Source of the DNA: Enterobacteria phage ATK47
DNA: 64,000 nucleotides
Sequence record: NC_055708.1
Strand: one strand, 5' to 3'
Below the pieces are notes generated by a model. That model was not told where the DNA came from and made no database searches. It saw only the letters and a list, made by a program, of their open reading frames with translations. Made by a program: the position numbers and the translations under genes. Positions 33,194-42,454 of the stretch are shown here, piece after piece. Position 1 is the stretch's first letter. Each line of letters begins with the position of its first letter.

Positions 33194-33205
33194 TTTTACA
33201 AAACA

Positions 33206-38426: not shown

Positions 38427-39029
38427 ATGCGAAACCAAAATAATGATATTGACTCAATGTTCGAAGAGTTCCGAGATAAGGTAAATCCACCTACGTCCTT
38501 AGTTGATTCATTACGATATGTTGCAACCGGACGTAAATGGTACTGGTCGTCTTCTTATGAGACCACCGAGAAAACGGCTAGCCATAGCAGAAAATCTTTA
38601 TTAGCCCCAGGTATTATGATTCATGATATCGGAGCTATTGCTAAACTAGTTGCAGACCATGATATTAGATTCACTGATTTCGTTGCTCCTACGTGGTCTG
38701 TTTGTTGTTTAAACACTGAATGGGAATATATCAGCGAACGCTCTGAAGATTATTATGGTTTTAGAGATAAGCTTCTGAGGTCTAATATGTTTTATATCGA
38801 TACAGAAGTTCTAGTCGATAATAAAAAATATTACTTTACGTTAATCATCGATTCTGAAACTATGTATGAAGGCAAGCCTTTGCTTAAAAGAGTTGATGCT
38901 TTAAGTGCTATTGATGCGCTTTATGAAACTATGGTTGTTAGTCCTAATTTCACTAACAATTTAATCCTTGAGCAATTTATTATGGAATGTAGAGAATATG
39001 TCAAAGCCAACCCTATACATGCCAAGTAA
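38427..39029 (+). CDS. hypothetical protein (200 aa) with C-terminal FIMECR motif
   Basis: ATG 38427 with SD AAGGAG; C-terminus LILEQFIMECREY. Confidence 0.6.
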   Translation: MRNQNNDIDSMFEEFRDKVNPPTSLVDSLRYVATGRKWYWSSSYETTEKTASHSRKSLLAPGIMIHDIGAIAKLVADHDIRFTDFVAPTWSVCCLNTEWEYISERSEDYYGFRDKLLRSNMFYIDTEVLVDNKKYYFTLIIDSETMYEGKPLLKRVDALSAIDALYETMVVSPNFTNNLILEQFIMECREYVKANPIHAK

Positions 39030-39393
39030 GCCCTGGGCGTATGAATACAAGCGTAAATTAATCCCAAATGAAGTACTATTTGGCCCTATTTTAGCTTTAG
39101 CATTTTTAATCTTTATGATTATAGGAGCTGTTTTAGATTCTAGTGAAGTTATATCGTCTGATGCAGCATTTTCATTAATGTTCGTCGCACCACTTATTGT
39201 ACCGTTTTTATTAATGCCTATTAATTGGGCGGGATATTGGCACCAAGGCCGTCATCACAGAGCCCGATTAAGAGAATGGAAAGTTCAGTGCGCAAAAGCC
39301 CAAGCTCAGTATGATGAAGCTGTTAAAAAGTATGAATATGAAGAAGCTATGGAATTCGTTAAGGAAATAAGATGCAAAAGCCTCAACTCTTAA
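38998..39393 (+). CDS. small membrane protein (131 aa), two TM helices
   Basis: Weak RBS, overlaps upstream gene by 32 nt; hydrophobic helices; C-terminus EFVKEIRCK. Confidence 0.5.
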   Translation: MSKPTLYMPSKPWAYEYKRKLIPNEVLFGPILALAFLIFMIIGAVLDSSEVISSDAAFSLMFVAPLIVPFLLMPINWAGYWHQGRHHRARLREWKVQCAKAQAQYDEAVKKYEYEEAMEFVKEIRCKSLNS

Positions 39394-39731
39394 CCGTATG
39401 GCCTTCTCTTGGTGAGAACATTCTAATTTTTATTATGAGTATTGGCATGGGATTTGCCTTTGGATTAGTTGGATTTCTTATTGACGGCGTTGTGTTAGGA
39501 TTTATAGGGAACACTGGTGGATTCACAGACCAATGGCAGGACTTACGGTATACCCAAGCCTTTGCATCCATCGCATCATTTTGTACTGTAGTCTATTTTT
39601 ACTACGATTTTATAAACCACAACAAGAAAAATAAAAAGGTTTACGCTTCTCAAATGATTAGTTATAATGAACTCCTAGCTAGACGTGAAAATGAAACAAT
39701 CGAAAACTTTATTAAGGAATGTAGAAAATGA
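39372..39731 (+). CDS. small membrane protein (119 aa) ending ENFIKECRK
   Basis: SD AAGGAA; two hydrophobic helices; conserved C-terminal tail. Confidence 0.6.
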   Translation: MQKPQLLTVWPSLGENILIFIMSIGMGFAFGLVGFLIDGVVLGFIGNTGGFTDQWQDLRYTQAFASIASFCTVVYFYYDFINHNKKNKKVYASQMISYNELLARRENETIENFIKECRK

Positions 39732-40033
39732 GTAAGATTATTGAAATTAAAGTACCAGAGTTTAATGATGCCAAATCCGCTTCAGATGCAATTTATAAAC
39801 TTCTGAATCAAGCTGAACGTATCGAAGAAGAAGCAACAAAGATCGCAGACCAATATGCCGTATCATTTTCTGTAGGTGATTATGGTAGTGGTCGTACTTA
39901 TTATCCTAAGGGTGAAATCGTATCCCAGTGGATGAAAGATGAAATTGAAAATAATGGCGGCGATGTTAAGCGTGAAGGTAATGGATACGTTATTACTGAA
40001 GGTGCTTGGGTTTCGTCTTCTGCGTTGTGCTAA
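39728..40033 (+). CDS. tandem paralogue A (101 aa), C-terminal GAWVSSSALC
   Basis: SD AAGGAA overlapping previous stop; shares YG-x-G-x-TY and GxWVxSSxxC with next two genes. Confidence 0.65.
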   Translation: MSKIIEIKVPEFNDAKSASDAIYKLLNQAERIEEEATKIADQYAVSFSVGDYGSGRTYYPKGEIVSQWMKDEIENNGGDVKREGNGYVITEGAWVSSSALC

Positions 40034-40042
40034 GGAATCATT

Positions 40043-40315
40043 ATGTCTAAAGAACAAACCGAACTGGCTGAAGCTGTAGCAAAAATCTATGCAGCTATTG
40101 AGGCTGCCAAAGAAATTGCTGATAAACAAAACACAACATTCGACTTGTATCCAGCTTATGGTATGGGTGGAACCTATCATTCACCAGGACATCTTAAAGC
40201 CGATCTTGAACGTTGTACAAAAAACGGTTATGCCGAATGGGCTGACGTTTACCAATACGACTACAACCTGAGCCTCGAAACTGGTGGTTGGGTCGCATCT
40301 TCTCACACTTGCTAA
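40043..40315 (+). CDS. tandem paralogue B (90 aa), C-terminal GGWVASSHTC
   Basis: Junction TGCTAAGGAA-N5-ATG shared with paralogue A. Confidence 0.65.
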   Translation: MSKEQTELAEAVAKIYAAIEAAKEIADKQNTTFDLYPAYGMGGTYHSPGHLKADLERCTKNGYAEWADVYQYDYNLSLETGGWVASSHTC

Positions 40316-40324
40316 GGAAACAAT

Positions 40325-40522
40325 ATGTCTCGTGAATTAGATTGTGCTGTACGTACGGCAGTAGCTGCTCTGGAAAACCTGTTCCAAATTGCAACAGAAG
40401 AACGCGAAGAAGTTACATTATGGATTGAAGATAACGCAGGTCTGAATCTCCAGGACGCGATCTCATTATCCCACAATAGTATCACTGTTCAAGGCTGGGT
40501 ATCATCTAGTTATTCTTGCTAA
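40325..40522 (+). CDS. tandem paralogue C (65 aa), C-terminal QGWVSSSYSC
   Basis: Same junction sequence and C-terminal motif as A and B. Confidence 0.6.
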   Translation: MSRELDCAVRTAVAALENLFQIATEEREEVTLWIEDNAGLNLQDAISLSHNSITVQGWVSSSYSC

Positions 40523-40526
40523 AACA

Positions 40527-40556
40527 GTTTACAACAAGATAGGGCTATGTTATAGT
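40527..40556 (+). promoter_or_regulatory. T4-type early promoter within palindrome
   Basis: GTTTAC, 18 nt, TG-t-TATAGT; ATAGGGCTA...TAGTCCTAT inverted repeat. Confidence 0.6.
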
Positions 40557-40584
40557 AGTCCTATCAAAACAAATGGAGTCCACA

Positions 40585-40824
40585 ATGATTTATTACGAAA
40601 GTATCGGAACCAAAGTGGTTGGTAAAACCATTACTCGTGAAAAGTTTGCAAAGATATTCGATATGCGTTATAAAAAATCTGAACACAAAGGCATCCGATT
40701 CGAAGATGCGCACTGTACAATTTGCCCTTATAATGAAGACATAAACGGTACAATCGTTCCATTGGTAGAGGCTTCACATGATGACCTCTGGGATGAATAT
40801 AATATCGCATGTCGTGAAATTTAA
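40585..40824 (+). CDS. hypothetical protein (79 aa)
   Basis: ATG 40585 preceded by GGAG; His and Cys residues near the C-terminus (possible metal site). Confidence 0.5.
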   Translation: MIYYESIGTKVVGKTITREKFAKIFDMRYKKSEHKGIRFEDAHCTICPYNEDINGTIVPLVEASHDDLWDEYNIACREI

Positions 40825-40852: not shown

Positions 40853-41809
40853 ATGATGTTAGTTATTGGTTCTCGTGCACTTCACTATCACGGTCTTATT
40901 GATTCTAGCGCTATTAAAAATAGTGATTGGGACTTTATTGCGGACCAAGGTTCTTGGAATGTATTCAAAAATCAAATGATGGGTGTATATGTTCACCAAG
41001 ATAACCCTGATGTCCAAGTTTTCAAATGCTTCCATAACGGACGCGAAACTCATTTTGAAGCATACATCGTTCCGGCTATCACTAACGTTCGCGAACTAGT
41101 CGGTGAACTCACTCCTGAAGATTTCACGTCTTCTTATGACCTTTTAAAATACGCCAAGAAAAATTTGACTAAAGACCGTTTGAACGGGTTTTACTGGGCA
41201 ACTCCTGAGATATGTCTTGCAATTAAGATGTCTCATCGTTTCAAGAAAAATAATCCATTCTTTTTAAAGACTATGAACCATATTCAGTATCTTCGTGGTA
41301 AAGGTGTTACACTGAACGATGAACTTACTGAAATTATGCTGAAACGCCAGAAAGAAACCTTGAATTATGCTCACCCAGTTCTTGACACTTCTAAAAGTGC
41401 GTTCTTTAAAGATGACATCTATACATATGACCATGATACTATTCATGAAGCCATTGCACTAACAGACCGTCCAGCGTATACATTTTATATGAAAGATGGT
41501 TCTGAAGTCATGACCTCACGCGAGAAGTTCGAATCATTACCAGAAATGGTCAAATTGGCCGGCGTATACGAAGAATCATGTGTACTAGCGTTAGAACGTT
41601 CTCAGATTCCTAATAACTTTGAAATCCATCCACGTGATAGTTTTATGATGGCCCTTGAAAAGGTCTGCACATCAATCACATCAGGATGGTTCCGTGAGTT
41701 CGCTTGGGAAAATTATAGCAAAGTAGTAAGTATGTACCAAAGCTTAGGACACGACGATTACGTCAAGCGTTTCAAACAAAACTTTCATATGGTAAAACCT
41801 TTCAAATAA
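40853..41809 (+). CDS. Pol-beta-fold nucleotidyltransferase-like protein (318 aa)
   Basis: N-terminal VIGSRALHYHG...NSDWDFIAD fits the hG[GS]-x(9-13)-D-x-[DE] NTase signature; rest uncharacterised. Confidence 0.45.
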   Translation: MMLVIGSRALHYHGLIDSSAIKNSDWDFIADQGSWNVFKNQMMGVYVHQDNPDVQVFKCFHNGRETHFEAYIVPAITNVRELVGELTPEDFTSSYDLLKYAKKNLTKDRLNGFYWATPEICLAIKMSHRFKKNNPFFLKTMNHIQYLRGKGVTLNDELTEIMLKRQKETLNYAHPVLDTSKSAFFKDDIYTYDHDTIHEAIALTDRPAYTFYMKDGSEVMTSREKFESLPEMVKLAGVYEESCVLALERSQIPNNFEIHPRDSFMMALEKVCTSITSGWFREFAWENYSKVVSMYQSLGHDDYVKRFKQNFHMVKPFK

Positions 41810-41822
41810 TTTCACAAAACAG

Positions 41823-41851
41823 TTTACAAGGTCTGTAGTTGTTGATACTAT
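41823..41851 (+). promoter_or_regulatory. T4-type early promoter within palindrome
   Basis: GTTTAC, 17 nt, TG-a-TACTAT; GGTCT...AGACC inverted repeat. Confidence 0.6.
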
Positions 41852-41889
41852 AGACCTATCAAAACAAATGAGTGAATGGAGATATAAAA

Positions 41890-42148: not shown

Positions 42149-42454
42149 ATGAAATTAGGCGAAACCAACCGAATTGGTCTTTTAACAATATTTGTATCAC
42201 TTTTTTACGCAGCTCTTTCTGTTGCAGTATTACAAAAGGCTTACAGTATGGATGGTGTTCCTGGTTTTGTATTCTTATCGCCGTTTTTGCTATTCGTTGG
42301 AGCATTGTTATTATATGCCACGACTAGTTTCGACCATAACGTCTGGGTCAATTATAAATGTAAATTGTCTGAAGAAGAACACGCAGAAGCTCGTAAAAAA
42401 GCTATTGAATCTACCAATCTAGAAAATTTCATTAAAGAATGTCGAGGAAAATAA
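42149..42454 (+). CDS. small membrane protein (101 aa) ending NFIKECRGK
   Basis: SD GAGGAGA; two hydrophobic helices; conserved C-terminal tail. Confidence 0.6.
   Translation: MKLGETNRIGLLTIFVSLFYAALSVAVLQKAYSMDGVPGFVFLSPFLLFVGALLLYATTSFDHNVWVNYKCKLSEEEHAEARKKAIESTNLENFIKECRGK

Follow-up and report, generated by a model that had tools for sequence, protein, structure and literature searches.

Three consecutive small genes of Enterobacteria phage ATK47 (sequence record NC_055708.1) end in nearly the same 10 amino acids, which raises the question of what function such a shared tail could serve. The genes, called here ORF1, ORF2, and ORF3 (for open reading frame), lie in a 64,000-nucleotide stretch of DNA, referred to as the window, from a T4-like Mosigvirus; phage ATK48 is 100% identical over the region. 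A first-pass annotation, made from the sequence alone, described the triplet as tandem paralogs of 101, 90, and 65 amino acids (aa), and the positions, lengths, and C-termini that it gave were all borne out (Table 1). It missed, however, the near-obligate linkage of these genes to a nucleotidyltransferase gene downstream, and it is this linkage that offers a route to function. We tentatively propose that the triplet proteins are dedicated partners of this MenT-like enzyme and engage it through the tail.

The likeness of the three tails is not due to chance, as evidenced by three comparisons. A six-frame scan of the window found the pattern W[VIL]xSSxxC followed by a stop codon in these three ORFs only, a relaxed form of the pattern matched once among the 26,697 10-mers internal to ORFs of the window (frequency, 3.7e-5), and pairwise BLASTP among the three copies gave E values of 1e-4, 3e-4, and 1e-3. 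ORF1 and ORF2 match phrog_899 (E values of 1.3e-22 and 3.5e-19), while ORF3 matches phrog_4882 (E value of 7.7e-37) and is also found by the family hidden Markov model (HMM; E value of 2e-6). An internal motif reported as common to ORF1 and ORF2 was upheld for its Y-G-x-G-x-T-Y part, but the Pro-Gly pair said to complete it is shifted by one residue (YGSGRTYYPKG versus YGMGGTYHSPG).

An exhaustive profile search (E value of ≤1e-3) recovered a family of 705 clusters at 50% identity. An alignment of 181 sequences defines its signature: an N-terminal helix with the pattern ...A-x-x-I-A-D-x-x-G-x-x-F, then Y-G-x-G-x-T-Y-x-P, a variable acidic/aromatic linker, and finally G-x-W-x-[SA]-S-S-x-x-C. 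Among 137 new, unselected family representatives, the terminal residue is exactly Cys in 130, and 5 more carry one extra residue; in the 130 Cys-ended proteins, Trp occupies position -8 in 128, and Ser occupies positions -5 and -4 in 129 and 127, respectively. Down to ~25% identity, homologs in Aeromonas phages, jumbo phages, and metagenomes still end with G-x-W-[VLIM]-[SA]-S-S-x-x-C, and distant tail-bearing homologs include phages of Aeromonas, Pseudomonas, and Acinetobacter as well as Xanthomonas jumbo phages. The family is phage specific, and its tail is essentially invariant and must occupy the very C-terminus. The suggestion that the invariant Cys marks a functional tail thereby agrees with the strong protein-level constraint on it; that the tail might merely overlap a ribosome-binding site (RBS), with no conservation at the protein level, is refuted by its retention in distant homologs.

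Members of the family are acidic (median isoelectric point [pI] of 4.46 and median net charge of -8.5; pI of 4.6 for ORF1), and in more than half of the small proteins the terminal Cys is the sole Cys. Searches of Pfam, NCBIfam, PADLOC, and PDB sequences returned nothing meaningful for the small proteins or for relatives of 140 to 170 aa, and no domain fusions occur among the best 150 family members. The earlier statement that the family was not recognizable thus holds, and PHROG 899 and PHROG 4882 are both labeled "unknown function," while the paralogy itself is real. Frameshifted or truncated copies of ORF1 and ORF2 also occur (P0002, which is RB69ORF139c; P0006; and P0048), and it seems that either individual copies are dispensable or the truncations are sequencing errors.

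The same gene accompanies the array almost everywhere. In ATK47, it starts 331 nucleotides (nt) past the ORF3 stop codon on the same strand, and the ~300-aa gene that follows the array in phages JS98, CC2, phiWec181, and XbC2 is its homolog (BLASTP E values of 0, 5e-92, 3e-62, and 6e-84, respectively). Linkage was tested in both directions on IMG/VR contigs. When 34 loci were found via the small-protein pattern, the enzyme gene lay directly downstream on the same strand in 32, and the other 2 stop at a contig edge. Conversely, of 80 loci found via enzyme patterns, 75 have one to five same-strand tail ORFs in the 2.5 kb upstream of the enzyme gene; just six tail ORFs lie elsewhere in those loci. 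After dereplication of the loci at 80% enzyme identity, the array is present in 48 of 54 lineages, with one copy in 14, two in 18, three in 6, four in 5, and five in 5; no other neighbor family is common to more than 12 of the 54. A search of 185,579 bacterial and archaeal species genomes gave five hits, all with both genes and all on contigs of metagenome-assembled genomes that are probably phage. The pair spans Straboviridae, Phapecoctavirus, Otagovirus, and the jumbo Mimasvirus at different genome positions, and it recurs at unrelated positions in Pseudomonas phage phiPsa374 and Acinetobacter phage Lazarus.

This association is asymmetric. At testable loci, no small gene was seen without the enzyme gene, while the enzyme is occasionally solitary: one Gram-negative lineage (the L084 group) lacks the array, L061 has a possibly decayed ORF ending in ...CYSSSTF (L061 4748-4987), and distant homologs in Gordonia, Streptomyces, Brevibacillus, and Roseobacter phages have no recognizable partner. 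In Brevibacillus phage Sundance, an ORF just upstream of the distant enzyme homolog (L123 2758-3039) ends EYSSSYYEEEEYSSSYYEED; it contains aromatic-SSS repeats (E-Y-S-S-S-Y-Y) and no Cys and may be a tail analog of Gram-positive phages. The 83-aa ORF that separates the triplet from the enzyme gene in ATK47 was considered as a third component and ruled out, its homolog being present in 12 of the 80 loci, in close relatives only. Taken as sequence evidence, the linkage points to the small genes and the enzyme gene forming a two-part phage module.

What kind of enzyme this is can be judged from both motifs and fold. The 318-aa protein matches Pfam DUF7277 and DUF7275 with scores of 95.6 and 265.6 bits against a gathering cutoff of 27. 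Across 38 diverse sequences, G6-S7, D25-x-D27, and E69 are invariant, and because of this G-S, DxD, and E combination the protein bears the signature of a pol-beta nucleotidyltransferase; the hG[GS] ... [DE]h[DE]h ... h[DE]h motifs and the nucleotidyltransferase fold that define the superfamily are both found. Its closest structural neighbors are MenT toxins, with matches to 8an4 (MenT1; 10.1), 4xje (ANT(2''); 8.6), 6j7n (TglT/MenT3; 8.5), 6y56 (MenT4; 7.8), 4ok0 (JHP933; 7.4), and 4wh5 (LnuA; 7.2). The C-terminal two-thirds holds further invariant residues, namely, K125, H128, K139, R165, E168, Y-D193-H194-D195-x-x-H198, and E240-E241, together with the segments A-L-E-R-P and C-T-S-I-T-S-G-W-F-R; K125-x-x-H128-R129, considered as a possible counterpart of the DUF1814-specific C-terminal motif IV, is invariant in the helical region. 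To judge by sequence, the apparent catalytic core persists even in those homologs from Gram-positive phages that lack a partner. Beyond DUF7275 and DUF7277, none of the 38 members matched any Pfam family, including DUF1814 and PF10127, at E values of up to 5, and searches of NCBIfam, PADLOC, and PDB sequences gave nothing meaningful for the enzyme either. The enzyme is encoded in 732 deposited phage genomes.

The most likely activity, by analogy, would be the addition of nucleotides to RNA 3' ends in tRNA modification or tRNA repair. RlaP-type pol-beta nucleotidyltransferases of phages and bacteria add one or two nucleotides to damaged RNA 3' ends (PMC12776372, PMC7824862), and, like RlaP, the enzyme studied here adjoins RNA ligase, Pnkp, or tRNA genes in several phages. 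However, it lacks the PF10127 match of RlaP, tail-bearing small partners have not been reported for RlaP, and RNA repair genes (Rnl1, Rnl2, and Pnkp), tRNA genes, or a lambda phosphatase-like gene lie near the enzyme gene in a minority of lineages only. A lambda phosphatase-like metallophosphoesterase is encoded directly downstream of the enzyme in 8 of the 54 lineages (L005 657-1394, L006 5768-6547, and six others), and several unrelated phages have a Pnkp or RNA ligase gene close by (L006 46-972, L122 2357-3004, and L124 1330-2310). Such neighbors hint at a connection to RNA ends or to phosphoserine. A Cys-Cys or shared-metal link between the tail Cys and an invariant Cys of the enzyme found no support, as C243 is replaced in Lazarus and phiWec181, both of which bear partners.

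How might the small proteins and the enzyme work together? MenT/AbiEii nucleotidyltransferases are controlled by partners of unrelated families that are encoded immediately upstream (PMC11375011). In one such system, the 7.4-kDa MenA1 acts through one helix and repositions the active-site Ser/Thr such that MenT1 phosphorylates itself (PMC11375011), and some DUF1814 enzymes have no linked partner or antitoxin at all (PMC7450476). The phage module shares with MenA1-MenT1 the pol-beta fold with its G-S, DxD, and E residues, an enzyme whose best structural matches include MenT1, MenT3, and MenT4, and a partner of the same size class encoded immediately upstream on the same strand; it shares with MenAT/AbiE systems at large the occurrence of diverse partner families and of some partner-less enzymes. 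Because gene order, enzyme fold, partner size class, and asymmetry all match, we propose that the triplet proteins may well be dedicated cognate partners of the nucleotidyltransferase, although we hold this tentatively. They are best read as antitoxin-like regulators or pseudo-substrates that would dock via the tail.

The three genes encode small (7- to 11-kDa), acidic, cytoplasmic proteins. Under this proposal, each protein would bind the enzyme. The acidic body would occupy the enzyme's basic RNA-binding surface, and the terminal tail would enter the active-site cleft, where its Ser hydroxyls could mimic the 3'-OH of RNA. As a consequence of such contact, the enzyme would be switched off, timed, or respecified during infection, possibly through induced autophosphorylation of the invariant Ser7 in the G-S motif, and the diverged paralogs would give different regulatory or specificity states. 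We infer the physical interaction, the docking of the tail, and the regulatory outcome from the conservation and linkage described above and from the likeness to MenT systems.

Several observations weigh against a regulatory partnership of this kind. A single regulator would suffice, and the presence of up to five ancient paralogs is unexplained by simple antitoxin logic; in MenAT/AbiE systems, there is no counterpart to arrays of one to five paralogs with an invariant C-terminal W-x-x-S-S-x-x-C. The invariant Ser-Ser and terminal Cys look more like acceptor or catalytic chemistry than like a binding epitope. The monomer model places W-V-S in a beta-strand of the sheet, which would leave no more than the last ~5 residues free to protrude. 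The enzyme itself departs from the MenAT/AbiE pattern in having no Pfam DUF1814 match and a large extra C-terminal region of ~140 aa that is highly conserved, and its partners match no solved fold and showed no similarity to a known antitoxin family. Moreover, the module resides in lytic phages rather than in bacterial chromosomes, and the catalytic core is retained in homologs of Gram-positive phages and in one Gram-negative lineage that have no recognizable partner.

The Ser-Ser-Cys chemistry is the starting point of the strongest alternative, in which the enzyme would modify the small proteins covalently, as substrates or carriers, by nucleoside triphosphate-dependent nucleotidylylation or phosphorylation of a tail Ser, or would act on the terminal Cys. 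The modified proteins, with their differing bodies, would then act on host targets, several precursors being served by one enzyme as in clusters for ribosomally synthesized and posttranslationally modified peptides (RiPPs). We regard this as possible but unlikely. The invariant residues S(-5), S(-4), and C(-1) are nucleophilic, each enzyme gene has one to five diverged copies before it, and a hairpin of the promoter early/stem-loop (PeSL) type, which separates the array from the enzyme gene, would permit excess expression of the small genes. Some family members repeat a W-E-S-S-S unit (P0054), and the Brevibacillus phage has its E-Y-S-S-S-Y-Y repeats upstream of the enzyme gene; the phosphatase-like gene that follows the enzyme in some lineages would also fit, and MenT-type enzymes can phosphorylate a Ser/Thr hydroxyl (PMC11375011). 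Set against these points, the enzyme persists partner-less in several lineages and therefore needs another substrate, structure prediction gives well-folded proteins with part of the tail inside a sheet, unlike RiPP cores, Pfam searches detected no RiPP-type enzyme domains, and the short W-x-x-S-S-C tails of some members alter the geometry of any ring-forming chemistry.

Two known systems help to place this substrate model. HepT-MntA (HEPN-MNT), a type VII system in which a minimal pol-beta nucleotidyltransferase covalently AMPylates its small partner, a HEPN RNase modified on Tyr, serves as a template for it. In contrast to HepT, the phage proteins have no HEPN features or Pfam matches, and their candidate acceptors are Ser and Cys in a C-terminal tail. 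RiPP precursor arrays, such as those for lanthipeptides, likewise consist of several small paralogous genes upstream of one enzyme gene, with Ser and Cys in a conserved C-terminal segment and a hairpin between the small genes and the enzyme gene. However, the C-terminal segment of the phage proteins is constant and the rest is variable, which is the opposite of leader/core logic; the phage proteins are predicted to be folded (AlphaFold model of ORF1 with a predicted local distance difference test score [pLDDT] of 90.7); and searches turned up no domain of the dehydratase, cyclase, or YcaO type, nor do the neighbors carry LanB, LanM, LanKC, or radical S-adenosylmethionine domains. A lanthionine-type ring, made by Ser dehydration and Cys addition, is unlikely given the folded proteins, the absence of a cyclase or dehydratase, and the short-tail geometry. 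A more specific version, which we consider improbable, is that the enzyme puts nucleotides or phosphate on the tail Ser or Cys and that the resulting one to five conjugates per phage are decoys or inhibitors of host systems by which RNA 3' ends or nucleotide signals are sensed or attacked. If it were true, such tail-directed protein nucleotidylylation would be a new enzyme/substrate class with no described counterpart.

Somewhat more doubtful again is the idea that the small proteins are adaptors or specificity subunits, whose common tail plugs into the enzyme while variable bodies recruit differing tRNAs or host proteins. The combination of a constant tail with variable bodies, long kept as separate orthologous groups, is what this idea would lead one to expect, as is the dependence of the small genes on the enzyme and not vice versa. 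Strongly acidic proteins are, however, poor RNA binders, and none of the proteins, the 140- to 170-aa members included, has a recognizable binding domain. It is still harder to see the proteins as independent, host-directed effectors, such as antidefense proteins or nucleic acid mimics, whose tail binds a host factor or cofactor or signals degradation and whose linkage to the enzyme reflects a shared pathway or co-inheritance with no direct contact. Acidity is typical of phage mimic proteins, the early/middle hyperplastic region in which the triplet lies is rich in host takeover genes, and in ATK47 the triplet has its own promoter-like site and hairpin. Yet linkage in at least 48 lineages, across unrelated phage families and at differing positions, with no small gene lacking the enzyme, would be difficult to account for if the two had no direct functional tie, and we give this idea a low probability.

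The weakest explanation, a recent local triplication in which a downstream RBS imposes the likeness of the gene ends and the tail has no function, draws on the TGC-TAA-GGAA-N5-ATG common to the two junctions and can be dismissed, as the tail is present in ORF3 although neither a gene start nor an RBS follows it, hundreds of distant homologs encode the tail with differing codons, and the paralogs are older than phage genera. The junctions do read TGC TAA GGAA-N5-ATG, exactly as first described, but they do not serve as a trace of duplication: this is generic TAA-GGA Shine-Dalgarno coupling that is also found in JS98, phiWec181, and XbC2, and the junction DNA is not a relic of duplicated DNA because the codons at the tail Ser positions differ among the copies (TCG, TCT, GCA, TCA, and AGT).

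The age of the paralogy is evident from the orthologs of each copy. ORF1 is 63% identical to gene a of JS98, 45% to its ortholog in Aeromonas phage CC2, and 30% to that in Phapecoctavirus phiWec181; ORF2 is 55% identical to gene b of JS98 and 42% to its ortholog in the Xanthomonas jumbo phage XbC2; and ORF3 is 54% identical to gene c of JS98. ORF1 and ORF2 are 30% identical to each other over 54 residues. Each copy thus has orthologs in other genera, even other families, that are closer to it than are its neighbors in the same genome, and the proposed local duplication and divergence stands insofar as the genes are true paralogs but not as a recent local event. Relatives carry up to five array types, a to e, of which a, b, and c are those of the window; type d (~70 aa) ends FW[FY]SSSMxxC, type e (~75 aa) has the shortened W-x-x-S-S-C tail, and all of these, variant tails included, match phrog_899. 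The window triplet therefore represents part of an ancient multigene array, and the copy number variation among related phages that the first-pass annotation proposed looking for does exist, with one to five copies per locus.

One feature of the ATK47 array may be peculiar to its lineage. The three ORFs share one reading frame, with a TAA and 9 nt between each ORF and the next; in JS98, four of the five array ORFs likewise share a frame with exact 9-nt spacers after TAA (L003 3492-4499). This spacing probably reflects an idiosyncrasy of translational coupling in the lineage; a shared frame is not required, because relatives have overlapping or 10-nt junctions. That the three ORFs might be fused by read-through was also considered and ruled out, the junctions of relatives being overlapping or out of frame.

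Table 1. Features of the ATK47 locus, in window coordinates
Feature	Coordinates	Strand	Remarks
e.4 membrane protein	about 39019-39393		= L001 3720-4094
e.3 ortholog	39372-39731		C-terminal ENFIKECR(K); 35% identity to T4 e.3
Promoter-like site	39640-39668	+	TTTACG-17-TATAAT; 10/12 consensus matches; 60 nt upstream of ORF1, inside the e.3 ortholog
ORF1	39728-40033	+	101 aa; type a; acidic; RB69ORF139c-like; DYGSGRTYYP ... GAWVSSSALC
ORF1 tail codons	40001-40030	+	G-A-W-V-S-S-S-A-L-C
ORF2	40043-40315	+	90 aa; type b; AYGMGGTY ... GGWVASSHTC
ORF2 tail codons	40283-40312	+	G-G-W-V-A-S-S-H-T-C
ORF3	40325-40522	+	65 aa; type c; RB69ORF136c-like; no YGxG motif; QGWVSSSYSC
ORF3 tail codons	40490-40519	+	Q-G-W-V-S-S-S-Y-S-C
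PeSL-like element after ORF3	40523-40575	+	AACAGTTTACAA; promoter-like hexamers 40528-40556; hairpin 40538-40565
83-aa ORF	40573-40824	+	phrog_3723, E value of 1.7e-36; contains H-C-T-I-C; between triplet and enzyme
Enzyme	40853-41809	+	318 aa; DUF7277 + DUF7275; MenT-like pol-beta nucleotidyltransferase; extra conserved C-terminal helical region
Second PeSL-like element	41818-41870	+	end of enzyme cassette; hairpin 41829-41857, free energy of -18.6 kcal/mol, z of -3.5
Second small membrane protein	42149-42454		C-terminal ENFIKECR(K), in common with the e.3 ortholog

The surroundings of the module provide further context. The + strand of the window runs in the opposite direction to the T4 map, and the triplet site lies between the tRNA cluster with e.8 to e.3 on one side and e.2, nudE, and e on the other. 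In T4, e.2 and e.3 are adjacent and the entire insertion is missing; a family HMM search of T4 from 62 to 76 kb gave no matches. The insertion, which consists of the triplet, the 83-aa ORF, the enzyme gene, and a 72-aa ORF, is bracketed by two genes with ENFIKECR(K) ends, and because the flanking genes have this sequence in common, the block from the triplet to the 72-aa ORF might be deleted or moved by recombination. The "sulfurtransferase" label found under a BLAST match was assigned to e.4 and not to the triplet. This GenBank label, like "prohead assembly scaffold protein" for the enzyme and "tail completion protein" for a small tail protein, looks like annotation noise.

Promoter-like and hairpin elements divide the region. 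The counterpart in phage SA79RD of the promoter-like site ahead of ORF1 is annotated as a T4 middle-type promoter, and the hairpin after ORF3 (free energy of -16.1 kcal/mol, z of -3.5) is annotated there as a terminator. The elements after ORF3 and after the enzyme gene both contain AACAGTTTACAA, early-promoter-like hexamers, a stable hairpin, and CTATCAAAACAAATG; their motif was observed 5 times versus 0.9 expected, and similar element cores lie at 33202, 59193, and 61893. PeSL elements form cassette boundaries in T4-type phages (PMC2839356, PMC4122927), and, by sequence, the two elements look like such boundaries. Since these elements would place the triplet and the enzyme gene of ATK47 in distinct PeSL cassettes that are prone to recombination, the persistence of the linkage from one phage family to another is all the more telling.

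Catalogs list the parts of this module without a function. The window genes fall into PHROG 899, 4882, and 23943 and Pfam DUF7277 and DUF7275, all labeled "unknown function." The tail signature and the linkage of the two families are recorded in none of the libraries searched, and no publication was found that names the families or describes the module; a survey of jumbo phages discusses RlaP but not the tail protein/enzyme family (PMC7824862). The near-invariance of the Trp, the two Ser residues, and the terminal Cys lends itself to highly specific tests by mutation.

A functional pairing would represent a widespread, unstudied module of large lytic phages. Hosts of these phages include Escherichia coli, Klebsiella, Acinetobacter, Pseudomonas, Aeromonas, and Xanthomonas, and many of the phages are candidates for therapy. 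Three PHROGs and two Pfam DUFs that had no working annotation would gain one. Should the proposed partnership hold true, an enzyme of the MenT/AbiEii type, known so far as a bacterial toxin or abortive infection effector, would be found on the phage side, together with a new kind of partner.

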